From Candidatus Yanofskybacteria bacterium RIFCSPLOWO2_01_FULL_49_17 (GTDB taxonomy: Bacteria; Patescibacteriota; Minisyncoccia; 2-02-FULL-40-12; GWA2-44-9), in NCBI GenBank assembly GCA_001795695.1, contig MGKO01000004.1, positions 1-53,094 of the forward strand: DNA of 53,094 nucleotides, in the 5' to 3' direction. The notes under the pieces were generated by a model that worked only from the letters and a program-made list of their open reading frames with translations, did not search any database and was not told the origin of the DNA. Shown piece by piece: positions 1-52,086 of this stretch. Positions within the stretch are counted from its first letter, which is position 1. The number at the start of each line of letters is the position of its first letter. The translations under genes and the position numbers were made by a program.

Positions 1-375
1 GCTTTCGTAAGAAAGAGGAAGGTGGGGATGACGTCAAGTCAGCGTGGCCCTCTGATGCCTTGGGCTACACACATGTTACAATGGGCGTTACAATGGGTTG
101 CCAACCCGCGAGGGGGAGCTAATCCCATCAAAGGCGCCCTCAGTTCGGATTGGAGGCTGCAACTTGCCTCCATGAAGCTGGAATCGCTAGTAATCGCTGA
201 TCAGAACGCAGCGGTGAATACGTTCTCGAATTTTGGACTCACTGCCCGTCAATCTAAGGGAGCCGGGAATACCCGAAGATCCATAATTTATGTGGGGACA
301 CGGTAAGCTCGGTAACAAGAGATAAGTCGTAACAAGGCAAGGCTAGCGGAAGCTGGTCTTGGATCACCTCCTTTC
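1..375 (+). rRNA. rrs: 16S rRNA, 3' terminal part (gene begins upstream of window)
   Basis: Conserved blocks GCTACACACATGTTACAATGG, GGAATCGCTAGTAATCG, GTGAATACGTT, AAGTCGTAACAAGG, ending in GGATCACCTCCTTTC (anti-SD CCTCC). The 1390-1410 region is unusually divergent (GGACTCACTGCCCGTCAATCT). Confidence 0.9.
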
Positions 376-403
376 TATTTTTCTTTTTAGAAAAATGCAT
401 GAA

Positions 404-7706: not shown

Positions 7707-8327
7707 TTAAGATTTTTTCAGGATCTCTTTCAATCGGGCCAGGTCTTTTTCTATCTTGTCTTTTACGGTCGGGTCTTTGGTTGCATAACTCGGATGAAAA
7801 GTAGGGACCAGCTCGTAACTGCCGAAGTTGAATGTCCGGCCGTGGACGTTATCAAGCGGCTGGCGGAGGCCTACCCCATTTAAGGCAAGATTACCCAAAG
7901 TAACGACCAGTGACGGGTTCAAGCTTTTCAGCTCTTCCTTCAAAAACGCGGCATGGGCCTTGAGCTCCTTAGGCGTCGGCACCTTGCCGTTAGGGTAGTA
8001 TTTGACGAGATTGGTTACGTAGATCTTTTTTTTATCCAAGCCCACGGTTTTGAGGACCTGATGGAATAATTTCTCGGATTGGCCGGCCAGCGGCTTGGCT
8101 TCTTTTTCGCCGTCGGAGTTAAGCATTTCGCCGACAAAAACCACTTTTGCCCCGACTAAACCGCTTCCGAATATCAATTTCTTATCATTGAACTTCTTTT
8201 TCAGGGCTCTGTGGACCCTTTCAAGTTCCTCGGGGGTTGTGGTGCGGGGCGTCTTCATTGGTTCGTTCATCCCAGGGCACCGGCCTTGCGATGGCTGGAG
8301 TGTATCATTAAATCTTATTTTTTGCAA
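7707..8327 (-). CDS. Uracil-DNA glycosylase superfamily protein (family 4/5-like); start uncertain
   Basis: Motifs VVFVGEM..PLAGQSEKLF, IYVTNLVKYYP, TFHPSY. The track start is TTG and overlaps the tRNA promoter; the internal ATG (MNEPMK) is more likely. Confidence 0.6.
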   Translation of the reverse strand: MQKIRFNDTLQPSQGRCPGMNEPMKTPRTTTPEELERVHRALKKKFNDKKLIFGSGLVGAKVVFVGEMLNSDGEKEAKPLAGQSEKLFHQVLKTVGLDKKKIYVTNLVKYYPNGKVPTPKELKAHAAFLKEELKSLNPSLVVTLGNLALNGVGLRQPLDNVHGRTFNFGSYELVPTFHPSYATKDPTVKDKIEKDLARLKEILKKS

Positions 8328-8350
8328 GTTAGCCCTGTTTTTGCTATAAT
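8322..8350 (+). promoter_or_regulatory. Sigma70-like promoter for tRNA-Ile
   Basis: TTGCAA, 17-nt spacer, TATAAT, ending 14 nt before the tRNA. Confidence 0.65.
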
Positions 8351-8352
8351 TT

Positions 8353-9903
8353 TTAGGATAAAATGCGCGAGTAGTTCAGTGGTAGAACGCCTAACTGATA
8401 ATTAGGAGGTCCCAGGTTCAATCCCTGGCTCGCGCACCACGTTGGAAAAGTCAATGCCTCGCCCCGCCTTCGGCGGGTCTCGGCGACCAAATCGTACGGA
8501 TTTTTCGGGGCAAAAAGAAATTCCCGATTCCGTAAAATATGGTTCGAGCCGATGTTTTTCAGAAATGTTGTCATTTCGGAAAGATTTTCTGATTCAAGCA
8601 GATTAGCGGCTTGATTTAAGGACTTTACGAACTCACGAGCCGGTTCGAGCCAAGACAACCCTTTTGTCTCAAAGTCGGTAATTTTTTCGGTTAACTCGAT
8701 CTTTTGTGAAATGAGAATGTCTTTTTTAGCGGCGTATTCTCGTTGAGTAAGAGCGTCATCGAGATATACGTCAAGCAACTTTTGAAGTTTTGCTTCCATC
8801 TGTGATAATTGCTCTTTGAGATTTATAACTTCACTTTTGGCTTGTTCCTTTGCTTCGGTTTCTTCCGTATCCAACGCCGCCAAAACTTTCTTGGTGTCTT
8901 GGCTCGACAAAGAAACTTTTTGAAGGAAGTTTTTGATTTGAACGATAAGCTGATTTTCACCGAGATACTTTTCTTGGCACGTGCCTCGCTTCTTGGTACA
9001 GCGGTAGTAAGTGTATATACCTCCGTTGCCTTTCGCATATTGCGCAGTTATCGAGCAACCGCACGAGGCGCATTTCATAAGGCCAAGAAAAGGAAAGTTG
9101 TGTTTTCTGTCTGGGCGAATCTTGCCACGCTTAGTCATAACCTCTTGGCACAAATCAAAAAGTTTCTTTGAAATTAACGGCTCGTGTGTTCCCTCAAAAA
9201 CTTCCCCTTTGTATCTCATCAAACCAATGTAAAAGGGATTTTGGAGAATATGCTGAACATTGCTCAATGAGATTTTGTTTCCGGCATTTGTGAGCAGTTT
9301 CTTTTTCTCACACCAATTTGCGAGAGAGTTGAGTGGATATGCTCCGGTGGCGTACATCTCGAAGATTTTTCTCACTAAAGGAGATTTATCTTTATCAACA
9401 TCAATCCCTCTAGTTTTGGGATTATTGGAATATCCTACCGGAGCCCAGCTTGGCCACACTCCATTTCGTATCTTTTGGCGTAGTCCTCTTTTCACATTCT
9501 CTCGCAAATTGTCTACAAAATACTTCGATTGTCCAAAAGCAATGTTCAGCATAAATAATCCTTGCGGCGTTGGCTCAAACCAGAAGCAGGGAAATTTGAG
9601 GGAACGAATCAAGCCGCGATCCACGAAGTGAATAATCTTTCCACCGTCCACAGAATTACGCGCTAACCTGTCGGGGTGCCAAGAGATTATCCCGTCCGCT
9701 TTCCCTTGTTCCAACAATGACAACATTTCTGCGAATTTAATTCGCCCGGGTTCTTTTGCGGTTTTGGCCTCTTGGAAAGAGGCAACAATTTCAAGTTTTT
9801 CTTTGGCGGCAAATTCTTTGAGCTCAACAAGTTGAGCTTCAATGGAGAGAACTTGTCGGTCGTCTTCCTCGGTACTTTTTCTTGCGTAGATAATGTATTT
9901 CAT
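8353..9903 (-). CDS. Large serine recombinase (resolvase catalytic domain + recombinase domain + zinc ribbon + coiled coil)
   Basis: Motifs YARKSTEEDDRQVLSIEAQ (catalytic Ser), DRLARN, CASCGC..YYRC zinc ribbon, and a long coiled coil. The last ~60 codons run through repeat X and the antisense of tRNA-Ile. Confidence 0.85.
   Translation of the reverse strand: MKYIIYARKSTEEDDRQVLSIEAQLVELKEFAAKEKLEIVASFQEAKTAKEPGRIKFAEMLSLLEQGKADGIISWHPDRLARNSVDGGKIIHFVDRGLIRSLKFPCFWFEPTPQGLFMLNIAFGQSKYFVDNLRENVKRGLRQKIRNGVWPSWAPVGYSNNPKTRGIDVDKDKSPLVRKIFEMYATGAYPLNSLANWCEKKKLLTNAGNKISLSNVQHILQNPFYIGLMRYKGEVFEGTHEPLISKKLFDLCQEVMTKRGKIRPDRKHNFPFLGLMKCASCGCSITAQYAKGNGGIYTYYRCTKKRGTCQEKYLGENQLIVQIKNFLQKVSLSSQDTKKVLAALDTEETEAKEQAKSEVINLKEQLSQMEAKLQKLLDVYLDDALTQREYAAKKDILISQKIELTEKITDFETKGLSWLEPAREFVKSLNQAANLLESENLSEMTTFLKNIGSNHILRNREFLFAPKNPYDLVAETRRRRGEALTFPTWCASQGLNLGPPNYQLGVLPLNYSRILS
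8365..8439 (+). tRNA. tRNA-Ile (anticodon GAU), CCA encoded
   Basis: Cloverleaf GCGCGAG/CTCGCGC, anticodon stem CCTAA/TTAGG, loop CTGATAA, T arm CCAGG-TTCAATC-CCTGG, ACCA end. Confidence 0.9.
8440..8533. repeat. Arm X (attL side), inverted copy at 9949-10042
   Basis: 94 nt with 1 mismatch between copies. Contains the hairpin CCCGCC-TTCG-GCGGG. Confidence 0.9.
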
Positions 9904-16751: not shown

Positions 16752-16780
16752 TTGACATTGGAGCCATGCTTTGCTATAAT
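16752..16780 (+). promoter_or_regulatory. Consensus sigma70-type promoter of the DGR target gene
   Basis: TTGACA, 17-nt spacer, TATAAT, all exact. Confidence 0.7.
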
Positions 16781-18762: not shown

Positions 18763-19811
18763 ATGAAGATATATTATGATGTTTTTTCTAAAATAGTTTC
18801 CCTAGAGAGCTTATTTTTAGCATGGCAGGAGTTTCGGAAAGGTAAATCGGCAAAGGAAGATGTTCAACAATTTGAGTTCAATCTGGAGGAAAATATTTTC
18901 CAACTTCACGATGAGTTGGCTAACGGCTTGTATCGTCACGGACCATATGAAGGATTTTTCGTTCACGATCCCAAGCGTAGGCATATTCACAAGGCTTTGG
19001 TCCGAGATCGGGTCGTCCATCACGCTATATTTTCGGTTATCAATCCGATATTTGAGGAAACGTTCATTCCAACATCCTTTTCCTGTCGGGTGGGATTTGG
19101 CGCTCATCGAGGAGTGGCAAGATTGCATCAGATGCTTCGTTCGGTGTCCTGTAACGGAACCAGGTCTTGTTTTGCTTTGAAATGCGATATTAAAAAATTC
19201 TTTGACTCGATAGATCATAATGTCCTGCTGGACCTTATTGGCAACCGAATGAAAGATCCCTCGGCGGGAATTTTGGTGAGCGAAGTTATTAATAGTTACG
19301 CCACGAGAGAGAGAGAGAGAGCAGAAACAGCCACCGAAAAACCGGTTTGCCCATCGGTAACCTGACCAGCCAGCTCTTTGGCAATATCTACATGAACGAG
19401 TTTGATCAGTTCGTAAAGCATAAATTGCGAGTTAAGAATTATTGCCGCTACACAGACGATTTTATCATTGTTTCATCAGAAAAAGAATACTTAGAAGAAC
19501 TGATTCCGAGAATAGAAGCGTTTTTAGGAGAACGGTTGCATTTGAAGTTGCACCCTGCCAAAGTAAGTATCCGTAAGATGGGTCAAGGAGTTGATTTCCT
19601 TGGTTATGTACAATTTCTTAATCATAGATTGTTACGTGTTAAAACCAGACGTCGGATATTTAGGAAATTTAACAATCAAATATTAAAGTATCAGCAGGGC
19701 ATTATTTCTCGCGAAAAATTGAATAGTTCCTTGCAATCTTACCTTGGTGTCTTTGGCCATGCCGATACATTCAGCATTGAACAGGAATTGCTCAATTTAT
19801 TGCCCATTTGA
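18763..19811 (+). CDS. DGR reverse transcriptase, split into two frames at a (GA)8 tract
   Basis: ORF 18763-19365 carries the N-terminal RT motifs (..HIHKALVRDRVVHHAI.., FDSIDH). The frame open from 19296 to 19811 carries GLPIGNLTSQLFGNIYMNEFD (the DGR-type [IL]GxxxSQ motif) and YTDDF. Removing one GA unit fuses both into about 348 aa. Confidence 0.85.
19305..19320. repeat. (GA)8 dinucleotide tract at the RT frame junction
   Basis: gagagagagagagaga followed by g. Confidence 0.95.
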
Positions 19812-21811: not shown

Positions 21812-21981
21812 CTTATCAGCTGACTAGCTTCCTAGCTTATTAGAATGACAGCCATTCACGGATATAAAGAGCTCATTGTATGGCAAAGATCAATGGAACT
21901 TGTGGTAGAGGTGATGAAAATGTTAAATAGTATGATTGGCAAACTAATAAGCTAATAAGCTAATATCTAATAAGCTAAACA
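21812..21981. repeat. H7 hairpin (AGCTAAT family) whose loop holds a gene remnant
   Basis: Arm gcttatcagctgactagcttcctagcttattag and arm ctaataagctaataagctaatatctaataagctaa. Confidence 0.6.
21845..21955 (+). pseudogene. Internally deleted remnant of a four-helix-bundle (23S-IVS/Avd family) gene
   Basis: The 36-aa ORF is MTAIHGYKELIVWQRSMELVVEVMKMLNSMIGKLIS. It combines the family's N-terminal (DLIVWQK..L) and C-terminal (KMLN.LI..L) signatures with the middle missing. Confidence 0.5.
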
Positions 21982-25285: not shown

Positions 25286-25447
25286 AATAACCGACAACTG
25301 ATGACATACAACTTACAACTTCAGAATAGTATCCACAGGTTTATCAACAGTCAGAATTAGCTGGCTTGCAGGCCTTTTTTATTTATGATAAGCATATGCC
25401 CAAGAGGACGAGCAGATTTGCGAGGTCCGATTGGCTGCACATGCTTA

Positions 25448-25604
25448 CCCCCTCCTTTCATCCGTTAGATGAATTAACACTGGGTTTGTGGGCATAAAAT
25501 TTAAAATACGTAAACTTAAATAATTTATCTATAGAAAGAAAGGAGGGGGTGACGATTTTGTAGCAGCTCGTCTGCTCTCGCACTTCCTCGCTGACAAAAT
25601 CGTC
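25448..25604 (+). promoter_or_regulatory. T1 element: anti-SD/SD hairpin with loop promoter and conserved leader (upstream of ftsZ)
   Basis: 5' arm CCCCCTCCTTTC (25448-25459), loop promoter TGGGCA-16/17-TAAACT (25489-25517), 3' arm GAAAGGAGGGGG (25538-25549). An 11-bp helix GACGATTTTGT/ACAAAATCGTC (25551-25561 / 25594-25604) ends at the ATG. Confidence 0.55.
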
Positions 25605-26774
25605 ATGGCTTTAACGAAACCACCATTTGAGACATTTGCCCGCATCAAGGTCATTGGCGTGGGCGGCGGAGGGACGAACGCCCTTCAGAGGATGATAGAA
25701 GCCCGCATCCACGGCGTTGAGTTCATTGCCATCAACACCGATGCCCAGGCACTGCATAATTCCAACGCTCCGGTCCGTATTCATATCGGCAAGAGCTTGA
25801 CCCGGGGCCTGGGCGCGGGCATGAACCCGGAAATAGGCCGCCAAGCGACGATTGACACTAAGGAAGAAATAAGCGCCGCGGTCAAGGGGGCAGACATGGT
25901 CTTCATCACCACCGGACTGGGCGGTGGCACCGGCACCGGCGGCGCGCCGATAGTGGCCGAGATAGCCCGCGAAGCCGGCGCGCTGGTCCTGGGCGTGGTC
26001 ACCAAACCATTCACTTTTGAGGGCGTCCAAAGGATGAAGATCGCCGAGGCCGGATGGAACGCTTTGCGCGAGCGGGTGGATTCGCTCATCACCATCCCCA
26101 ACGACCGACTTCTCTCCATCATTGACCGTAAAACGCCATTGCTTGATTCATTTGCCATCGTTGACGATGTCCTGCGTCAGGGTGTCCAGGGTATTTCAGA
26201 CCTGATAACTGTCCCCGGCATAATCAATCTGGATTTTGCCGATGTTAAAGCGGTCATGGCCAATTCCGGCTCGGCTCTGATGGGCATCGGCCACGCCAGC
26301 GGCGACGACAGAGCAGTTGAGGCGGCCAAGATGGCCATCAATTCGCCCTTGCTGGAAGTTTCCATTGACGGCGCCACCGGCGTCCTGTTCAATGTCTGCG
26401 GCGGAGCCGACATGGCCATGGCCGAGATAAATGAAGCGGCCCGCATCATCACCGAACACATCTCTGCCGAAGCCAAAGTCATCTTCGGCGCGGTGCTGGA
26501 CGACAAGTTAAAGAAAGGGGAGCTGAAGATAACGGTCGTGGCCACCGGCTTCAATAACGGCCAGCCGTCCACCTTGCGGCCGGCTTCGGTCTCCGGTTTC
26601 GGGGACATTCCCCAAAATCTTTTTGAATCAGTGAAAAAGAGCACGATATCTTCCACTAAATCTGATTCAACCAACGGAAAGACATCCAAACCGGTCAAAG
26701 AGTTTGTGGATGACTCTCTGGACGATAATCAATTTGATATACCGGCTTTTATCAGACGAAAAATAAGTAAATAA
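25605..26774 (+). CDS. ftsZ: Cell division protein FtsZ
   Basis: Motifs [28 protein letters not shown]. Confidence 0.95.
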
Positions 26775-26807
26775 CTTAAAACTCCCGCTTTCGCGGGAGT
26801 TTTAAGT
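26774..26807 (+). terminator. ftsZ terminator
   Basis: 15-bp stem acttaaaactcccgc/gcgggagttttaagt. Confidence 0.7.
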
Positions 26808-26853
26808 TATCAACACTTTCCAACTTATATACGTTCGCTACAATTGATTACCT

Positions 26854-34306: not shown

Positions 34307-34377
34307 TTAGCTTTTTAGCTGATTAGCTTATTAGGGTAACCTAAAAAGCTAGTAAGCTGATAAGCTAGTAAGCTAAA
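34307..34377. repeat. H7 hairpin, AGCTAAT family
   Basis: ttagctttttagctgattagcttattaggg-taa-cctaaaaagctagtaagctgataagctagtaagctaaa, followed directly by the TTG start. Confidence 0.75.
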
Positions 34378-34845: not shown

Positions 34846-34920
34846 GTAATCAGCTTCTTAGCTGATTAGCTGACTAGGGCAACCTAAGAAGCTAGTAAGC
34901 TGATAAGCTAGTAAGCTAAG
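34846..34920. repeat. H7 hairpin, AGCTAAT family
   Basis: Close relative of 34307-34377. Ends ..gctagtaagctaag followed by TTG. Confidence 0.75.
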
Positions 34921-39040: not shown

Positions 39041-39307
39041 TTGTTATTTCACCTCGGTTCTGATATAATCGGAGCCGAGAATAAGGTAGCAAATACGCGG
39101 TAGTATTTATCCGGCAATGGTTCGACAGGCTCACCACAAGCGGTGGCCGAAGTTCACGAAAGTGAGAACATCGAACAAATCCGGTTTATAAAAATACATC
39201 GAGTAACAGTTATCTTAATTATTCAGAGTGGTTTCAAACCAATCTAAGTAAACCAAACAAAAACAAAGAGACCAGCTGGGCGGATGCCGGCTAGTCCGGC
39301 GTTTTTT
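39041..39307 (+). ncRNA. Candidate independent ~230-nt ncRNA unit between rpsJ and rplC (identity unknown)
   Basis: Promoter TTGTTA-17-TATAAT (39041-39069) starts right after the rpsJ stop. Internal GNRA hairpins include gttcac-gaaa-gtgagaac. Terminator GCCGG-ctagt-CCGGC plus T6 (39286-39307) ends 6 nt before the rplC ATG. Confidence 0.4.
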
Positions 39308-41867: not shown

Positions 41868-41932
41868 AAACTAGGAAATAGGTTATAGGAAATAGCTGTA
41901 ACCTAAAATCCTATAACCTATAAGCTAATAAT
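41868..41932. repeat. H7 hairpin (ATAGG / CCTAT family)
   Basis: A 13-nt core ataggttatagga pairs with tcctataacctat, flanked by heptamer-periodic sequence. Ends 9 nt before the ATG. Confidence 0.7.
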
Positions 41933-42286: not shown

Positions 42287-42352
42287 TTAGCTTATAGGAA
42301 ATAGGTGATAGAAAAACTATAACCTAAAATCCTAAAACCTAAAACCTAGAAG
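42287..42352. repeat. H7 hairpin (ATAGG / CCTAA family)
   Basis: cttataggaaataggtgatag .. ctataacctaaaatcctaaaacctaaaacctag. Confidence 0.65.
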
Positions 42353-42859
42353 ATGGCAACCGTAAAAGCACAATTGATGAACGCCCGATTGGCTCCGCGC
42401 AAGGTGCGGCTGATAGTCAATTTGGTCAAAGGCAAAAACGCCCAGGCAGCCTTAGAGCAGCTGGCTTTTGTCATACGCCGTCCGGCCGAGCCCATAGCTA
42501 AACTCATAAAATCGGCCATTGCCAACGCGACCAATAATTTCAATATGGTGGCGAGCAACTTGTACATCAAAGATTTCTATGTGGATGAGGGAGTGAAATT
42601 GAAGCGCTACCGACCGGCCGGTTTTGGCCGGACCCGCGAGGTCCACAAGAAGACCAGCAATATTCATCTGATATTGGCCGAAAAAGTGCCCGGCCTGAAA
42701 AGTGAAGCAGTTAAGAAGAAGGAAGAAAAGCACGAACATAAGATTGACGTCCAAATAAAGTCAAAGACAGATAAACCAGAAATAAAGACCGAACTGGGGA
42801 AGAAAGATAAAACCAGAGGTGGGTTCATGAGAAAAATGTTTCAACGCAAATCAATTTAA
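42353..42859 (+). CDS. rplV: Ribosomal protein L22 (C-terminal extension)
   Basis: ARLAPRKVRLIVNLVKGKNAQAALEQL and YVDEG..LKR..P...GR. Confidence 0.9.
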   Translation: MATVKAQLMNARLAPRKVRLIVNLVKGKNAQAALEQLAFVIRRPAEPIAKLIKSAIANATNNFNMVASNLYIKDFYVDEGVKLKRYRPAGFGRTREVHKKTSNIHLILAEKVPGLKSEAVKKKEEKHEHKIDVQIKSKTDKPEIKTELGKKDKTRGGFMRKMFQRKSI

Positions 42860-42900
42860 GTAATTATCCGAGAGCGAGAGCGATTGGAAATAATTGCTTA

Positions 42901-43059
42901 CCCCCTCTTTCTATCATGTATTCACAATATAGACAAAATGGTAAAAATTAATTATAATCAAACATCTTTGTCTTCTTATTAAGACAAGAAAGAGGGGGTC
43001 GCAAGTTTGTGGCAGCTCGTCTGCTCGCTGACTCGCACTTCCTCGCCGACAAACATCCG
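42901..43059 (+). promoter_or_regulatory. T1 element upstream of rpsC
   Basis: 5' arm CCCCCTCTTTC (42901-42911), loop promoter TAGACA-17-TATAAT (42930-42958), 3' arm GAAAGAGGGGG (42988-42998), and conserved leader GTTTGTGGCAGCTCGTCTGCT..CTTCCTCGCCGACAAAC ending at the ATG. Confidence 0.6.
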
Positions 43060-43719
43060 ATGGGACAAAAAATATCACCAATTTCGCTCCGCACCGGTAT
43101 TCAAAAGGATTGGCTCTCCCGCTGGTTTGGCGGCCGCAAATATATTCCTTATCTGAAAGATGACCTGAAGGTCCGTTCATTTCTTGAGAAGAAATTAAGG
43201 GGCATGAGCGTGGCCGACATTCAAATAGAGAGAGGGACCGACACCCTTAACATTATCATTACTACCGCTCGGCCGGGGCTTATCATCGGCCGCGGGGGAA
43301 CCGGCATCGAAGACCTTAAGAAATCCGTCCAGCGCCTGCTCAAAAAGAAGATAGCTGTCCGTCTTGAAGTTCAGGAAATAAAATATCCAGAATTGTCAGC
43401 CGCGGTCATGGCCGAATCAATGGTTGAGCAAATAGAGAAGCGTATTCCGTTCAGGCGGATAATGAAAATGACCTTACAGAAAATGATGTCCAACAAGCAG
43501 GTCAAAGGCGCTAAGCTCCAGATGGGCGGCCGTTTGGATGGCGCCGAGATTGCCCGCTCCGAGCACTTGGAAGAGGGTAACCTGCCGCTTCAGACCTTGC
43601 GCGCCGATATTGATTTTGCTAAGGCCACTGCTCATACAACCTACGGCACCATCGGAATCAAAGTTTGGATATACAAAGGCGAAAAATTTGAAGATGCCCG
43701 CAACGGCGGCGAGCGGTAA
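43060..43719 (+). CDS. rpsC: Ribosomal protein S3
   Basis: MGQKISPISLR, KH domain GRGG.GIE.L. The track start GTG 43009 lies inside the T1 leader. Confidence 0.9.
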   Translation: MGQKISPISLRTGIQKDWLSRWFGGRKYIPYLKDDLKVRSFLEKKLRGMSVADIQIERGTDTLNIIITTARPGLIIGRGGTGIEDLKKSVQRLLKKKIAVRLEVQEIKYPELSAAVMAESMVEQIEKRIPFRRIMKMTLQKMMSNKQVKGAKLQMGGRLDGAEIARSEHLEEGNLPLQTLRADIDFAKATAHTTYGTIGIKVWIYKGEKFEDARNGGER

Positions 43720-43730
43720 CATCTTCAAAA

Positions 43731-43886
43731 CCCCTCTTTTCAAATAAATAAAGAGGTGGACAAAATATTAAAAATAGATTAAAATATAACAGCTTAATCA
43801 CAGTAATACGATAGAAAAGAGGGAGTCGCAAGTTTGTAACAGCTCGGCTGTTCGCAAACTCACAACTCCTCGCTGACAAACATCCC
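43731..43886 (+). promoter_or_regulatory. T1 element upstream of rplP
   Basis: 5' arm CCCCTCTTTTC, loop promoter TGGACA-17-TAAAAT (43757-43785), 3' arm GAAAAGAGGGA, and the conserved leader ending at the ATG. Confidence 0.6.
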
Positions 43887-44297
43887 ATGCAACCAGCCAG
43901 AGTAAAACACACCAAGACCCATAAAGGCCGCAACCAGGCCCGCAAACAGTTCGCTACCCGCGGGACCCATTTGAGCTTCGGCAGCTTCGGCCTGAAAGCA
44001 GAAGAAGCCGCCTGGCTTAAAGCTAATCAACTTGAGTCGGCCCGAAAGGTCATGGCCCGTTTCATTCAGCGCGGAGGCAAGATCTGGACCAGGGTTTTTC
44101 CGGATAAACCGCGGACGGCCCGCAGTCCCGAATTGGGCATGGGCGGCGGCGCCGGAGGGTTGTCCCATTTCGTGGCCCCGGTCCAGATCGGCCGCGTTAT
44201 TTTTGAGATAGACGGTCTGCCGGAGGCGTCGGCCCGCGAGGCCTTGCGTCTGGGCGCCCACAAATTGCCGATAAAGACGAGGATTATTGCCCGTTAA
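43887..44297 (+). CDS. rplP: Ribosomal protein L16
   Basis: [15 protein letters not shown] and FGSFGLKA. Confidence 0.95.
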
Positions 44298-44547: not shown

Positions 44548-44628
44548 AGCTTATTAGCTTCTTAGCTTATCAGCTGATTAGGGCAACCTAATAAGCTAGT
44601 CAGCTAGGAAGCTAATCACCTAAAAAAT
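44548..44628. repeat. H7 hairpin, AGCTAAT family
   Basis: gcttattagcttcttagcttatcagctgattaggg-caa-cctaataagctagtcagctaggaagctaatc. About 30 bp, imperfect, with G:U pairs. Confidence 0.75.
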
Positions 44629-44994
44629 ATGTTGCAACTACGTTCAATAGTAGAAGTGGCGGACAATTCAGGCGCAAAACGCGTCGGCATTTTCAAAGTG
44701 CTTGGCGGCTCGCGCCGGCGCTACGCCCAGATCGGAGACATTGTCGTCGCTTCGGTCAAAGTGGCCGAGCCGCGCAAAAGCGTCAAGAAAAAAGATGTGG
44801 TGAGGTGCGTCGTTGTCCGCCAGAGAAATCCCTACCGCCGCAAGGACGGCACTTATGTCCGTTTTGACGCCAACGCGGTGGTTCTGTTGGACGGCATGGA
44901 GCCCAAAGGCGGACGCATCTTCGGACCGATACCGAGGGAAATTAAAGAAAAAGGGTTTAACACGATTGCTTCGCTCGCTAGCGAACTTGTATAA
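44629..44994 (+). CDS. rplN: Ribosomal protein L14
   Basis: ADNSGAK....KVLGGS.RRYA.IGD. Confidence 0.95.
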   Translation: MLQLRSIVEVADNSGAKRVGIFKVLGGSRRRYAQIGDIVVASVKVAEPRKSVKKKDVVRCVVVRQRNPYRRKDGTYVRFDANAVVLLDGMEPKGGRIFGPIPREIKEKGFNTIASLASELV

Positions 44995-44995
44995 C

Positions 44996-45100
44996 CCCGT
45001 TAGAAATCACGAACAACCATGAAAAAAATGATAAATAACCAAATAAACCAGACCAGCCACCGTTTCAAAACGGTGGACGGATTGTTTGATTTCTAACGGG
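44996..45100. repeat. T2 element copy a (105 nt, TIR CCCGTTAGAAATCA / TGATTTCTAACGGG)
   Basis: Identical to 46029-46133 and 46321-46425. Starts 1 nt after the rplN stop and ends at the rplX ATG. The inner hairpin CCACCGTTT-caaa-ACGGTGG is present. A 25-codon mini-ORF spans 45019-45096. Confidence 0.9.
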
Positions 45101-45406
45101 ATGAAGATTAAGAAGGGCGACAACGTGAAAATGCTGGGCGGGAAAGACCGGAACAAGACCGGCAAGGTTTTGGCCGTGATGCCTGCCGAAAATCTGCTGG
45201 TCATTGAGGGTTTAAATCTTGTTAAAAAACATACCCGGGCCAGAAAGCAGGGCCAAAAGGGACAGATCATCCATAAAGAACGGGCTGTCAGCGCGGCCAG
45301 TGTTGCTCTTGTCTGCAGGTCTTGCGGTAAGGCGACCCGCGTCGGCTATAAACTGACCGGTGACGCGAAAATCCGTGTTTGTAAAAAGTGTCAATCCGAG
45401 ATATAA
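45101..45406 (+). CDS. rplX: Ribosomal protein L24
   Basis: MKIKKGDNV.....KD..KTGKV. The MISNG prefix in the track is translated T2 repeat. Confidence 0.9.
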   Translation: MKIKKGDNVKMLGGKDRNKTGKVLAVMPAENLLVIEGLNLVKKHTRARKQGQKGQIIHKERAVSAASVALVCRSCGKATRVGYKLTGDAKIRVCKKCQSEI

Positions 45407-45490: not shown

Positions 45491-46036
45491 ATGACTAGCT
45501 TACTGCAAAATTACCGAAAGAACGTCATTCCTGCCCTACAGAAAGAGTTTCATATTGGCAACGCTATGGCTGCGCCCAAGATCGTCAAAGTTACGATCAA
45601 TACCGGTGTCGGGAGATTTGCCAAAGACGACAAAACCCTGGAGCGTATTGCTAAGGACATAGCCATACTTTCAGGCCAAAAGCCGGTCTTCCGGGCGGCC
45701 AAAAAGTCCATCGCCAGTTTTAAGGTCCGGCAGGGCGTGCCAGTCGGTATTTCGGTCACTCTCCGCGGCCAGCGCATGTATGACTTCATCAGCCGTCTGA
45801 TAAATATCGCATTGCCCCGCTCCAGGGACTTTCGCGGGATTGAAACGAAGAACATAGACCGGAACGGCAATCTGAATCTCGGTCTGCGCGAGTCCAGCAT
45901 TTTCCCGGAGCTCAATTATGAGAATATGAAAGACATTTTCAGCTTGGAGGTTTCAGTCACCACCACGGCCAAGACCCATGAGCAGGGCGTGGCATTATTA
46001 AAGCACTTAGGTTTTCCAATCAAAAAATCCCGTTAG
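45491..46036 (+). CDS. rplE: Ribosomal protein L5
   Basis: PKIVKVTINTGVG and FRGI....D..GN.N.G. The stop codon TAG is supplied by the T2 terminal repeat. Confidence 0.95.
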   Translation: MTSLLQNYRKNVIPALQKEFHIGNAMAAPKIVKVTINTGVGRFAKDDKTLERIAKDIAILSGQKPVFRAAKKSIASFKVRQGVPVGISVTLRGQRMYDFISRLINIALPRSRDFRGIETKNIDRNGNLNLGLRESSIFPELNYENMKDIFSLEVSVTTTAKTHEQGVALLKHLGFPIKKSR

Positions 46037-46133
46037 AAATCACGAACAACCATGAAAAAAATGATAAATAACCAAATAAACCAGACCAGCCACCGTTTCA
46101 AAACGGTGGACGGATTGTTTGATTTCTAACGGG
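46029..46133. repeat. T2 element copy b
   Basis: 100% identical to copy a. Ends at the rpsN ATG. Confidence 0.9.
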
Positions 46134-46319
46134 ATGGCCAAAAAATCCACAATTGCCCGTTCCAATAAGAAGCCCAAGTTTTCTACCCGAACAGTCAGGC
46201 GCTGTTTCCTGTGCGGCCGCAAGGGCGGCTACATCGGCAGATTTGGTCTCTGCAGAATCCATTTTCGTGAATTGGCCAGTGCCGGACTTTTACCCGGAGT
46301 TAAAAAATCAAGCTGGTAA
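46134..46319 (+). CDS. rpsN: Ribosomal protein S14, zinc-binding short (type Z) form
   Basis: C.LCGR..G....[19 protein letters not shown]. Confidence 0.9.
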
Positions 46320-46320
46320 T

Positions 46321-46425
46321 CCCGTTAGAAATCACGAACAACCATGAAAAAAATGATAAATAACCAAATAAACCAGACCAGCCACCGTTTCAAAACGGTG
46401 GACGGATTGTTTGATTTCTAACGGG
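46321..46425. repeat. T2 element copy c
   Basis: 100% identical to copies a and b. Ends at the rpsH ATG. Confidence 0.9.
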
Positions 46426-46824
46426 ATGGACCCAATATCAGACATGCTCAACCGAATAAAGACCGCTTCAATGGCCCGTCAAGACCAGGTGATGATGCCG
46501 TTCTCAAAGATGAAATTAGCGATAGCCGATGTTCTTTTGAGTGCAGGATACATTTCCGGCGCAGAGAGAAAGAGCAAGAAACATAAAAAATCAGAGCATG
46601 AATACCTACTTATAGGATTGAAATACAACGACGGGACATCAGCCATCTCCGGTATTAGGATGATCAGCCGGCAGTCCCGACGGATGTACCTGACGGCTGA
46701 TGAGATAAAACCGGTCCGTTCCGGTCACGGTCTGGCCATCCTCTCCACCTCCAAAGGAGTGATGAGCTCCCGTGATGCCCGCAAACAGCATGTCGGCGGA
46801 GAGATAATTTGTGAAATCTGGTAA
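46426..46824 (+). CDS. rpsH: Ribosomal protein S8
   Basis: DPISDMLNRIK and GGEIICEIW. Confidence 0.95.
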   Translation: MDPISDMLNRIKTASMARQDQVMMPFSKMKLAIADVLLSAGYISGAERKSKKHKKSEHEYLLIGLKYNDGTSAISGIRMISRQSRRMYLTADEIKPVRSGHGLAILSTSKGVMSSRDARKQHVGGEIICEIW

Positions 46825-46865
46825 GCGAATGTCCAAGAGCGTAAGCGATTGGCGACAGTCGCTTA

Positions 46866-47018
46866 CCCCCTCCTTTTATCATGAATATACGAATGGACAA
46901 TAATACAAAAATAGATTATAATAACACAGTTTTTCATTTAATATAAAGATAAAAAGGAGGGGGTGACGAGTTTTATAACTGCTCGTCTGCTTCGCAACTC
47001 CTCGCAGATAAAATCGTT
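46866..47018 (+). promoter_or_regulatory. T1 element upstream of rplF
   Basis: 5' arm CCCCCTCCTTTT, loop promoter TGGACA-17-TATAAT (46894-46922), 3' arm AAAAGGAGGGGG (46952-46963). The helix GACGAgTTTTAT/ATAAAATCGTT ends at the ATG. Confidence 0.6.
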
Positions 47019-47561
47019 ATGAGTAAGATCGGAAAAAAACCAATTATTATCCCGGATAAAGTTGAGATAAACGTTAGCTCGGGTTCGGTTACGGTAAAGG
47101 GTCCAAAGGGAACATTGACCAAGAAGCTGCCGGCTAAAGTTTCGGTGGCTGTGAGCGATAAGGTGCTGAACATCAGGCCAGAAACGGTGGACCGCCAAGG
47201 CAAAATGGCCTGGGGCCTGGCCCGCGCTTTGGTCCAGAACATGATTCTCGGCGTTTCTGAAGGTTTTGAAAAAGTGCTGGAGTTCCAAGGTGTCGGTTAC
47301 AAAGCGACAGTCAAAGGAAACGACCTGGAGCTCGGGCTGGGCTATTCCCACCCGGTCACCGTTCACGGGCCGGAAGGGGTCACTTTCAAGACCGAGAAGA
47401 ACTCCATCTGCATCCAGGGCGCCGATAAAGAGCTTGTCGGAAAAGTAGCCGCCGAAATTCGCTCCCATCGCAAGCCGGAGCCATATAAAGGCAGCGGCAT
47501 TCGCTATGTGGGTGAGCATGTCCGACGTAAAGCTGGGAAGAAAGCGGCAACAGCGGCGTAA
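47019..47561 (+). CDS. rplF: Ribosomal protein L6
   Basis: SKIGKKPI.IP..V and V.VKGPKG.L. Confidence 0.95.
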   Translation: MSKIGKKPIIIPDKVEINVSSGSVTVKGPKGTLTKKLPAKVSVAVSDKVLNIRPETVDRQGKMAWGLARALVQNMILGVSEGFEKVLEFQGVGYKATVKGNDLELGLGYSHPVTVHGPEGVTFKTEKNSICIQGADKELVGKVAAEIRSHRKPEPYKGSGIRYVGEHVRRKAGKKAATAA

Positions 47562-48685: not shown

Positions 48686-48742
48686 GTGATAGGAAATAGG
48701 ATGATAGTCAGAAACTAGATTCCTATAACCTATAATCTAATT
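48686..48742. repeat. H7 hairpin (ATAGG / CCTAT family) where an L30 gene would normally sit
   Basis: ggtgataggaaataggatgatag .. ctagattcctataacctataatc. Confidence 0.6.
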
Positions 48743-49219: not shown

Positions 49220-49286
49220 CTTTTTAGCTGATTAGCTTATTAGGGTAACCTAAAAAGCTAGTAAGCTAGTAAGCTAATAAGCTAGA
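49220..49286. repeat. H7 hairpin, AGCTAAT family
   Basis: The 5' arm and loop are identical to 34311-34358. Ends ..taagctaga followed by TTG. Confidence 0.75.
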
Positions 49287-51264: not shown

Positions 51265-51273
51265 TGCATTTAT

Positions 51274-51339
51274 CCCGTTAGAAATCCCGCCTGCGCCATG
51301 CGCAGTCCGCAGGACCTCGGGCGGGATATTTCTAATGGG
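51274..51339. repeat. T2-related short element (same termini, different core)
   Basis: CCCGTTAGAAATCCCGCC .. GGCGGGATATTTCTAATGGG followed by ATG. Confidence 0.7.
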
Positions 51340-52086
51340 ATGAAATTAAAGACACCCGAAGAAATTGAAATAATGGCCGAAGGGGGCCATATTCTTTCCG
51401 ATATCCTTGATCGGCTGGTTGTCGCGGCTAAGCCCGGAACGACCACCAAAGAACTTGACGATATTGCCCGCAAGCTTCTAAAAGAAGCCGGCGCGAAGTC
51501 CTGGTTCGTTGACCATGAAGGATTCCCAGCTTCTATTTGCACTTCAATCAACGAAGAGGTGGTCCACGGTGTTCCGTCCGATAGGATTTTAAGATCAGGT
51601 GATGTGCTTAAGATAGACTTCGGCGTCCGCTATAAAGGTTTTAACACGGATAGCGCCAGAACCGTCCTTGTCGGAGAGGCCAAAGACGCTAAGAAGTTGA
51701 AATTGATATCGGTCACTAAGCGCGCTCTTGATATCGGTATTGAACAGGCTCAAGTCGGTAATGCCCTTAAGGATATCGGACGAGAGATACAAAAATACGT
51801 AGAGTCGCAAGATTTTAACGTCGTTCGGGAATTAGTCGGACATGGGATCGGCAAAGACGTTCATGAACCGCCTCAAGTCCTGAACTATGTTTCTCCGGGT
51901 GAGGGAAAGGAAAAGTTGGAACCGGGATTGGTCATCGCCATAGAGCCGATGGTGGTCGCCGGTCATTGGAAGATAGAGGACGGAAAGGACGGCTTTTCAT
52001 TCGTGACTAAAGACGGGGGCCTGGCCGCTCAATTTGAACATACGGTTGCCATAACCAAAGACGGTCCGTTAATTCTGACAAAGTAA
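51340..52086 (+). CDS. map: Methionine aminopeptidase, type I
   Basis: Motifs VVHG.P, D.G....G...D...T, HGIG...HE, EPM. Confidence 0.9.
   Translation: MKLKTPEEIEIMAEGGHILSDILDRLVVAAKPGTTTKELDDIARKLLKEAGAKSWFVDHEGFPASICTSINEEVVHGVPSDRILRSGDVLKIDFGVRYKGFNTDSARTVLVGEAKDAKKLKLISVTKRALDIGIEQAQVGNALKDIGREIQKYVESQDFNVVRELVGHGIGKDVHEPPQVLNYVSPGEGKEKLEPGLVIAIEPMVVAGHWKIEDGKDGFSFVTKDGGLAAQFEHTVAITKDGPLILTK

Follow-up and report, generated by a model that had tools for sequence, protein, structure and literature searches.

T1 copies in the window and beyond

The DNA analysed here is a stretch of 53,094 nt from Candidatus Yanofskybacteria bacterium RIFCSPLOWO2_01_FULL_49_17 (contig MGKO01000004.1 of assembly GCA_001795695.1), referred to below as the window. 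It carries 16S rRNA and tRNA genes, ftsA and ftsZ, and a long series of ribosomal protein genes that includes the S10-spc operon; its RpsC is 74-89% identical to proteins of Yanofskybacteria and Paceibacterota. The spacers before four well-recognisable genes, ftsZ, rpsC, rplP and rplF, are occupied by homologous copies of a non-coding element, here called T1, with a mean column identity of 73%. An initial annotation had reported four such copies, each ending at a start codon, with a conserved leader of about 55 nt and a helix that closes at the start codon. All of this is borne out at the positions given there, and the helix reaches the A of the AUG. The copies had been drawn too short, since an additional 5' hairpin, which takes in the upstream stop codon in the rpsC and rplF copies, also belongs to the element (Table 1).

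T1 is a family of the candidate phyla radiation (CPR). A degenerate pattern derived from the leader was searched, blind to strand, against one genome per species and against metagenome contigs. About 7 of the 11 genome matches and about two-thirds of the 54 metagenome matches were discarded on inspection as chance matches in GC-rich coding sequence. With chance matches removed there are about 17 additional copies, from Yanofskybacteria-like CPR genomes and related metagenome contigs (sequences labelled L below), and a covariance model search found one extra copy (L017:699-784, or L017a). The family amounts to about 21 copies from about 14 genomes or contigs, all with a common plan of three hairpins, P1, P2 and P3. 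More than one copy per sequence is found in the window (4 in 53 kb) and in L017 and L019 (2 each). The genes downstream of family members are mostly housekeeping and highly expressed genes: those for ribosomal proteins, and ftsZ, groES, nusA, nusG, ssb and glmS.

Rfam 15, run over the entire window at the gathering threshold, matched only the 16S rRNA and three tRNAs and no T1 family, and permissive Rfam scans of one window copy and of L007 gave only chance-level matches to miRNA and snoRNA families. Viral contigs scanned for T1 yielded GC-rich chance matches only, and a literature search on Parcubacteria and CPR bacteria found no description of such an element. T1 is therefore a previously undescribed family with respect to Rfam and the literature searched. 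Transcribed palindromic intergenic repeats as a kind are already known (ERIC, Correia, REPIN); what is new is the family itself, its construction from three hairpins, the strict orientation of its copies and their exact fit from stop codon to start codon.

Three-hairpin architecture and covariation

The three hairpins of T1 abut with linkers of 0-1 nt, the insert as a whole is 170-270 nt long, and compensatory changes are present in all three stems. P1 (45-60 nt) begins with TAAG, and in most operon-internal copies this TAA terminates the gene before it: it ends rplV (42857-42859) and rpsH in the window, and the upstream gene in L014, L017a/b, L019a/b, L032, L036, L041, L058 and L065, with TGA taking its place in L064. 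P1 exists in two types. For the type represented in the window, an alignment made blind to structure has 92% of cells paired with 8 compensatory pairs, against 22-37% paired in controls with slid partners.

P2 is a long stem with a pairing probability of about 1 in almost every copy. Its arms vary freely between copies yet remain complementary (CCCCGCACTATCTGG, CCCTCACACCTACTGG, CCATGCACT, CCGGGCACCTATCAAG, CCCCGCCTCCTA and CCCCCTCCTTTC are examples), and its interior is of three kinds: a structured, conserved module some 80 nt long (7 copies), a very short one (L003 and L014, where P2 measures only 35 nt), and an AT-rich one (the window copies, L058, L065 and L001).

P3 (55-65 nt) is the hairpin next to the start codon. 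Over its 20 modelled pairs 94% of cells are paired, compared with 27-49% in slid controls; 33 cells are accounted for by 8 compensatory pairs, and the main covariations are already present in the structure-blind MAFFT alignment. One pair of the inner CNGC/GCNG helix is exchanged among A-U, U-A, C-G and G-C. The difference between TTTTGT/ACAAAA before ftsZ and TTTTAT/ATAAAA before rplF, quoted in the initial annotation as a compensatory change, is truly one (G-C in 10 sequences, A-U in 6), and P3 covaries in the additional copies as well, where covariance had been proposed as a check. In 18 of 18 copies the A of the AUG is paired to the conserved U after P2, so that the start codon lies at the base of P3 and abuts P2. 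Between the covarying helices lie conserved unpaired bases (internal loop UCGKCUG / AAYUCCUC). The three helices of the rpsC copy leave out only 2 of 206 nt, compared with 18.5 in shuffles. The 3' strand of T1 is rich in A, C and U and poor in G, as in the other leaders of this genome that have no Shine-Dalgarno (SD) sequence.

Two observations on the window RpsC touch these copies. The protein recorded in public collections (P0001) has 236 amino acids (43009-43719) and starts at GTG 43009, inside P3, while the RpsC proteins of relatives have 210-219 amino acids and start at the equivalent of ATG 43060; the longer record is probably a start-site mis-call caused by T1. At the other end, the window RpsC terminates in ...KFEDARNGGER* (43690-43719), and the proteins of relatives stop shortly after KGEKF. 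The T1 insert apparently supplied the 3' end of rpsC, because the extra codons and the stop fall inside the P1-like hairpin of the rplP copy.

Table 1. T1 hairpins of the four window copies, with the 16S reference tail and one further spacer type
Feature	Position	Strand	Remarks
16S rRNA 3' tail GGATCACCTCCTTTCTA (anti-SD)	361-377	+	reference for SD comparisons
ftsZ copy, P1 hairpin, long beta type	25389-25447	+	away from stop codon (ftsA end 25285)
ftsZ copy, P2, arms CCCCCTCCTTTC / GAAAGGAGGGGG	25448-25549	+	perfect 9-nt match to / complement of 16S tail; loop without passing promoter-like site
ftsZ copy, P3 hairpin	25550-25605	+	ends in ftsZ ATG 25605-25607
rpsC copy, P1 hairpin	42857-42900	+	TAAGTAATTAT CCGA GAG..CGA TTGG AAATAATTGCTTA; first 3 bases are the rplV stop codon
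rpsC copy, P2 5' arm CCCCCTCTTTCT	42901-42912	+	
rpsC copy, promoter-like TAGACA-17-TATAAT in AT-rich P2 loop	42930-42958	+	11/12 matches
rpsC copy, P2 3' arm AGAAAGAGGGGG	42987-42998	+	-15.5 kcal/mol against 16S tail, without GGAGG
rpsC copy, P3 hairpin	42999-43060	+	last pair uses A of rpsC ATG 43060-43062
rplP copy, P1-like hairpin GAAGATG...CATCTTC	43690-43726	+	overlaps final rpsC codons and stop 43717-43719
rplP copy, P2, arms CCCCTCTTTTC / GAAAAGAGGGAG	43731-43825	+	loop TGGACA-17-TAAAAT 43757-43785, 10/12
rplP copy, P3 hairpin	43826-43887	+	ends in rplP ATG 43887-43889
rplF copy, P1 hairpin	46822-46865	+	first 3 bases are the rpsH stop codon (46822-46824)
rplF copy, P2, arms CCCCCTCCTTTT / AAAAGGAGGGGG	46866-46963	+	loop TGGACA-17-TATAAT 46894-46922, 11/12
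rplF copy, P3 hairpin	46964-47019	+	ends in rplF ATG 47019-47021
Spacers of the CTAxAAGCTA type	34307-34377, 34846-34920, 41868-41932, 42287-42352, 44548-44628, 48686-48742, 49220-49286; also 21912-21981		

Placement, gain and spread

The orientation and the ends of T1 are strict. In searches blind to strand, all 21 copies lie in the sense of the downstream gene. Each copy found sits at a gene start. Nineteen of the 21 end flush at the ATG, among them the glmS copy, whose start is fixed by the Met-Cys N-terminus, and copies that stand in 5' untranslated regions (5'UTRs) downstream of good TTGACA/TATAAT promoters, with no shortage of space. The two that are not flush are those of L010, in which a canonical AAGGAGG-7-ATG stands between the element and rpsU, and of L036, in which another structured RNA stands between the element and ruvB. 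The latter is a structured stretch of about 230 nt (L036 2010-2245; e.g. CCTTTTAAATCTGTAGGCAA ... TTGCCTACAGGTTTAAGGGG). The former (L010 3346-3365, - strand) is among the few true SD sites seen and is reminiscent of the SD-dependent autoregulation of bS21, the rpsU product, reported for other SD-poor bacteria. One copy, L019b (L019 9759-9840, ssb-rpsR junction), is truncated: it is without P2 and the 5' strand of P3, with P1 fused directly to GCTCGTCTG. At the same ssb-rpsR junction L064 has a complete copy.

The S10-spc operons of three close relatives, L066, L067 and L068 (RpsC 89%, 84% and 82% identical), contain no T1 copy anywhere, and their rplV-rpsC, rpsC-rplP and rpsH-rplF junctions hold unrelated spacers of 5-62 nt. 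The rplF copy with its flanking codons (46822-47021, 200 nt from TAA to ATG) is 100% identical to the L058 copy between rpsK and rpsD, at a locus the remainder of which has no match to the window. From the absence in close relatives and the identical copy elsewhere it follows that T1 is duplicative and was recently gained. Copies also group by genome and not by junction: the rpsC and rplP copies of the window resemble each other, as do L017a, L017b and L039. Contigs of the same species from six samples carry the same T1 copies and are at least 99.75% identical, too similar to reveal T1 polymorphism. Two of these contigs end at 46962, inside the rplF copy, as is expected of a repeat. A conspecific empty site was sought through an exact 219-amino-acid RpsC and was not found, such a protein being absent from the public record.

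Palindromic build and comparison with known systems

The covariance model of P3 matches the opposite strand exactly at P1 in L041 (35 bits, E 2e-6) and also at P1 of L010 (24 bits). Within the window it gives reverse-strand matches at 25384-25464 in the ftsZ copy (22.5 bits, E 0.005) and, weakly, at 43681-43747 in the rplP copy (19 bits, E 0.037). These opposite-strand matches indicate that P1 is a diverged inverted copy of P3, and hence that the T1 unit is an imperfect palindrome; the internal-loop motifs are mirrored too, with GAG/CGA in P1 and UCG/CUC in P3. The inverted repeats of T1 are the P2 arms and the P1/P3 pair, the outermost foot helices of which are no longer mutually complementary. 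The divergence of the foot helices, each of which now pairs with itself, favours the three-hairpin form over a single rod. One long rod with P1 paired to P3 is the minimum-energy fold of the ftsZ copy only, and it was rejected.

The closest parallels are palindromic repeats of other bacteria. Correia/NEMIS (Neisseria) and ERIC (enterobacteria) are transcribed, palindromic, MITE-like repeats (MITE, miniature inverted-repeat transposable element), and those of the Correia type can bring in or generate promoters and are substrates of RNase III. T1 resembles them in being small (100-270 nt), non-coding and multi-copy, in forming imperfect palindromes with long hairpins in intergenic regions that are probably transcribed, also within operons, and in its differing presence between related genomes. 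It differs in having no visible target-site duplication, in being always sense with an exact stop-to-start fill, and in consisting of three abutting hairpins, each with its own covariation, in place of one rod. Of the features by which MITEs are recognised, T1 has the small non-coding multi-copy form, the inverted repeats and the presence or absence between relatives, and it lacks the target-site duplication and the insertion in either orientation. Doublets of repetitive extragenic palindromic (REP) sequences, the REPINs and BIMEs mobilised by RAYT, have a matching topology, with inverted hairpin units (P1 and P3 in T1) around a spacer, and are likewise intergenic, multi-copy and conserved within a clade, but the T1 units are 2-3 times longer (45-65 nt against about 20-35 nt). 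T1 is also strictly tied to start codons, and no RAYT (Y1 transposase) gene is present among the 10 window open reading frames (ORFs) scanned.

Two further likenesses concern RNA. The split ribosome-binding site of phage T4 gene 38, an analogy drawn by the initial annotation, also has a hairpin between a purine-rich SD-like stretch and the AUG, which would shorten the spacing. In T1 the hairpin is well placed for this, as P3 starts directly after the 3' arm, ends in the AUG and is supported by covariation. Unlike in gene 38, the SD-like stretch of T1 is locked in a far more stable P2 stem and is not conserved in the family, and when released it is predicted to pair with P3, in a host that rarely uses SD; folding in silico leaves it little accessible (unpaired probability 0.00-0.27 in read-through RNA and 0.12-0.30 in RNA started in the loop). 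Intergenic RNase III sites of T7 early mRNA and the tRNA punctuation of mitochondria are, like T1, structured modules exactly between cistrons that could define mRNA ends; T1 shows neither a tRNA-like fold nor any relation to them in sequence or in Rfam.

Possible origin and role of T1

The reading that we tentatively favour, although it falls a little short of being probable, is that T1 is a clade-specific duplicative element of Yanofskybacteria-like Paceibacteria, an imperfect palindrome of MITE/REPIN-like kind that is co-transcribed, closes on itself, and has been tolerated or co-opted as a portable stop-to-start leader. T1 would be transcribed with its flanking genes and fold into P1-P2-P3. 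As every stem is self-closing, the two ends of the insert adjoin, so a short spacer could be replaced without moving the start far from the upstream stop or the mRNA 5' end. Such an insert may then have persisted and been co-opted as a portable leader that preserves re-initiation or another SD-independent form of initiation. In the sub-type found in the window, the structured interior of P2 appears to have been swapped for an AT-rich segment with a sigma-70-like -35/-10 pair, and the arms would happen to read as anti-SD and SD; such AT-loop copies may add internal transcription starts.

Several points weigh against this reading. The comparison of filled and empty junctions revealed no target-site duplication; the entire spacer from TAA to ATG has been replaced and not interrupted, which simple transposition leaves unexplained. 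No autonomous partner or transposase matching T1 is found among the 10 window ORFs scanned, and the strict orientation is atypical of MITEs. The closing foot helix of P3 is thermodynamically marginal in most single-sequence folds, and the search pattern is partly responsible for the apparent invariance of the P3 loop bases, which vary in L017:699-784, the one copy found by the model only. G.U and A.C usage is equal on both strands, without a sense-strand bias, so that selection on the stems at the RNA level is not separable from selection on a DNA palindrome; template switching can create compensatory changes in DNA palindromes without any RNA function. Lastly, the signal that spacer ends are held together is modest outside T1, because random RNAs also bring their ends fairly close.

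A somewhat unlikely alternative is that T1 is a purely selfish or neutral palindromic repeat, a plain MITE or REP that plays no part in expression. It would survive in operons only because a hairpin that closes on itself disrupts them least, and insertion specificity or purifying selection would by itself account for the orientation and the flush ends. The sporadic occurrence of T1, its absence from close relatives, which manage well on short spacers, the identical copies and within-genome similarity, the palindromic build, the unbiased use of G.U, and the presence of other, unrelated palindromic fillers in the same operon all agree with it. It accounts poorly for the orientation of 21 out of 21 copies, given an element that is nearly symmetric, and for 3' ends flush with the ATG even in 5'UTRs with free space. 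Under neutrality P1 and P3 would also not be expected to have foot helices that pair each with itself and not with the other, nor T1 to be fixed in conspecific contigs from six samples.

Several other kinds of element were rejected. An integron attC-like site does not agree with flanking genes that are housekeeping genes in conserved order, nor a tRNA-like element with the missing fourth helix, an autoregulatory leader of ribosomal proteins with downstream genes this diverse, or an intrinsic terminator with the lack of a U-tract after P1 or P2; as for a small ORF, nothing is conserved on either strand.

SD-like arms and promoter-like loops

The initial annotation had proposed that the window copies are riboregulators, in which a mimic of the 16S tail hides the SD in read-through RNA, a promoter in the loop yields transcripts with a free SD, and P3 brings that SD to the AUG. 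This explanation, which could apply to the AT-loop sub-type only, is unlikely. Its sequence parts are present in some of the copies. The full 9-mer CCTCCTTTC of the 16S tail occurs in the 5' arm of the ftsZ copy only (25448-25459); the rplF copy has CCTCCTTT, and the arms of the rpsC and rplP copies (CCCCCTCTTTCT and CCCCTCTTTTC) are without CCTCC. The extended SD was found as GGAGG in the 3' arms of ftsZ and rplF and is absent from those of rpsC and rplP, leaving two of four. A strong pair of promoter hexamers with a 17-nt spacer is present in three of the four loops (11/12, 11/12 and 10/12 matches), and the ftsZ loop, in the copy with the best SD/anti-SD arms, fails the scan.

The rpsC, rplP and rplF loops hold the three best promoter-like sites on the + strand between 42000 and 48000, which also rank among the best of the window. 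They stand 97-102 nt upstream of the ATG, at a distance like that of the promoter-like site of tuf, and equal in quality those before tRNA genes, rpsL and tuf. Elsewhere in the family the pair is weak in L065 (9/12) and lacking in L001 and L017. Conservation extends over all 30 nt of the promoter segment and takes in the spacer along with the hexamers, so it may be a matter of common descent. The four 3' arms are the strongest complements of the anti-SD near any gene start in the window (-15 to -19 kcal/mol). They exceed composition-matched shuffles (p 0.007-0.04), and so do those of L065, L001 and L017; the 3' arms of copies with the structured module do not (p 0.07-0.5).

In silico folding separates the two halves of the proposed switch. 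Sequestration of the SD in read-through RNA is predicted as claimed, with an unpaired probability of 0.00-0.03 in three copies and 0.27 in the rplP copy. In the loop-started isoform, modelled as an RNA beginning 7 nt after the -10 box, the SD would not be freed: it is predicted to be mostly paired (unpaired 0.12-0.30) with the conserved CUCCUC of P3. P3 itself is real, and only about 4 nt plus the width of a helix separate the arm from the AUG, but this SD-CUCCUC pairing is predicted to remodel or dissolve P3, so that the bridge between SD and AUG would be lost in the short isoform. Between the two isoforms, little change is predicted in how accessible positions -12 to -1 are.

Use of SD in this organism and the distribution of the arms count further against the switch. 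Only 3 of 57 window genes reach -8 kcal/mol or stronger against the 16S tail, compared with 12% of random windows; SD sites being rarer than in random windows, the organism hardly uses SD, although its 16S rRNA keeps CCUCC. Nor are the anti-SD/SD arms and the promoter a general design. Most relatives have the same hairpin with unrelated arms (CCCCGCACTATCTGG/..., CCATGCACT/...) and a structured interior that is not AT-rich, and the architecture is kept without them. The regulatory model had also left the behaviour of a mobile repeat out of account, and the copies, which close relatives lack, are recent gains specific to this lineage. The anti-SD/SD reading and the promoter are best taken as plausible, if unproven, features of the sub-type and not as the reason for the existence of the element.

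Other possible readings of T1

Three further explanations were considered. The first, distinctly unlikely as it stands, is that in this SD-poor bacterium internal cistrons are translated mainly by ribosomes that the upstream stop codon hands over, and T1 is a mobile bridge for re-initiation (a shunt) across about 200 nt of folded RNA, with the window sub-type serving as a promoter-plus-leader cassette that rewires S10-spc into separate units. Other palindromic fillers of the operon would then act likewise, holding stop and start side by side, and in 5'UTR copies folded in this way the AUG would come to lie beside the mRNA 5' end.

The second, which we regard as improbable, makes T1 a site of RNA processing or punctuation, where an endonuclease (for example RNase III acting on the perfect P2 stem of 12-16 bp) or self-cleavage would leave P1 as a 3' stabiliser upstream and give the downstream mRNA a defined, possibly near-leaderless 5' end. 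A long, near-perfect P2 stem with a pairing probability of about 1 in nearly all copies, the exact stop-to-start span and an SD-poor genome would suit such a role. Against it, neither gathering-threshold nor permissive Rfam scans match a known ribozyme family, and P2 is only 35 nt in L003 and L014 and absent in L019b.

Finally, a shared cis-regulatory leader at which a trans-acting factor (protein, small RNA or small molecule) binds the P3 internal loop UCGKCUG / AAYUCCUC to co-regulate growth genes is very improbable: the conserved unpaired bases between covarying helices, the mostly housekeeping, highly expressed genes downstream and the complementarity of the P1 loop bases GAG/CGA to P3 CUC/UCG, which permits alternative folds, would agree with it, but the search pattern overstates how conserved the loop is, and L017a differs there, some copies lack P1 or else P2 and half of P3, and close relatives without the element at the same genes are not expected of a core regulon.

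Other spacers and features of the window

T1 is not the only folded spacer in this region. From rpsL to map there are 22 spacers of at least 35 nt. Most of them form much more stable structures than their shuffled versions do (z -4 to -9), usually a single helix system that spans stop to start; bases left outside these helices make up a fraction of 0.14, compared with 0.23 for shuffled sequences (Wilcoxon p 0.0013). A second repeat, T2, is present as 112-nt copies, 99-100% identical, before rplX (44992-45103), rpsN (46026-46137) and rpsH (46317-46429), with a diverged variant before map (about 51270-51342). T2 is a palindrome with a 14-bp terminal helix, CCCGTTAGAAATCA...TGATTTCTAACGGG, extending from just past the stop to the ATG, and an inner hairpin, CCACCGTTT-CAAA-ACGGTGG. 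A third type of spacer has leaders rich in A, C and U and resembling CTAxAAGCTA, which are the 3' arms of hairpins with G/U-rich 5' arms (TAGCTTTTTAGCTGATTAGC...). These precede rpsG, fusA, rpsS, rplV, rplN, rplO and secY and fold with z -4 to -9 (Table 1). The rpsJ-rplC spacer (39041-39283, 243 nt) is one stop-to-start helix system (-75 kcal/mol, z -4.7) that begins with a promoter-like TTGTTA-17-TATAAT, and it may be another palindromic element.

Some features of the window lie apart from these spacers. Directly after ftsZ a perfect 19-bp palindrome (26770-26811; AATAACTTAAAACTCCCGC-TTTC-GCGGGAGTTTTAAGTTATC) looks like a bidirectional terminator. The best promoter-like site of the window, a perfect TTGACA-17-TATAAT (12/12) at 16752-16780, is located at the start of an ORF without a Pfam match. 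Adjacent ORFs at 18763-19811 match the N- and C-terminal halves of RVT_1 and represent a split or frameshifted reverse transcriptase gene or an unusual overlap. A large serine recombinase of 516 amino acids with Resolvase, Recombinase and Zn-ribbon domains is encoded at 8353-9903 (- strand); the 3' end of its ORF overlaps an opposite-strand tRNA gene (8365-8436, + strand) behind a good promoter-like site (8322-8350), and the arrangement may represent an integrated element at the tRNA.

Implications for CPR genomes

The genomes of CPR bacteria are tiny and streamlined and their ribosomes unusual, and little is understood of how translation begins in them without SD sites. In the lineage of the window almost every junction of its most conserved operon is filled by folded stop-to-start palindromes, where close relatives keep spacers of 5-60 nt. 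One practical effect is that T1 probably misleads gene callers, as in the 236-amino-acid RpsC record with its start in P3, and breaks assemblies. If neutral, these inserts would reveal which mobile DNA can invade essential operons, and why, namely because it is self-closing. If functional, T1 would be a portable module for translation, coupling or promotion of transcription, and would offer a handle on SD-independent initiation and on operon rewiring in uncultivated bacteria.

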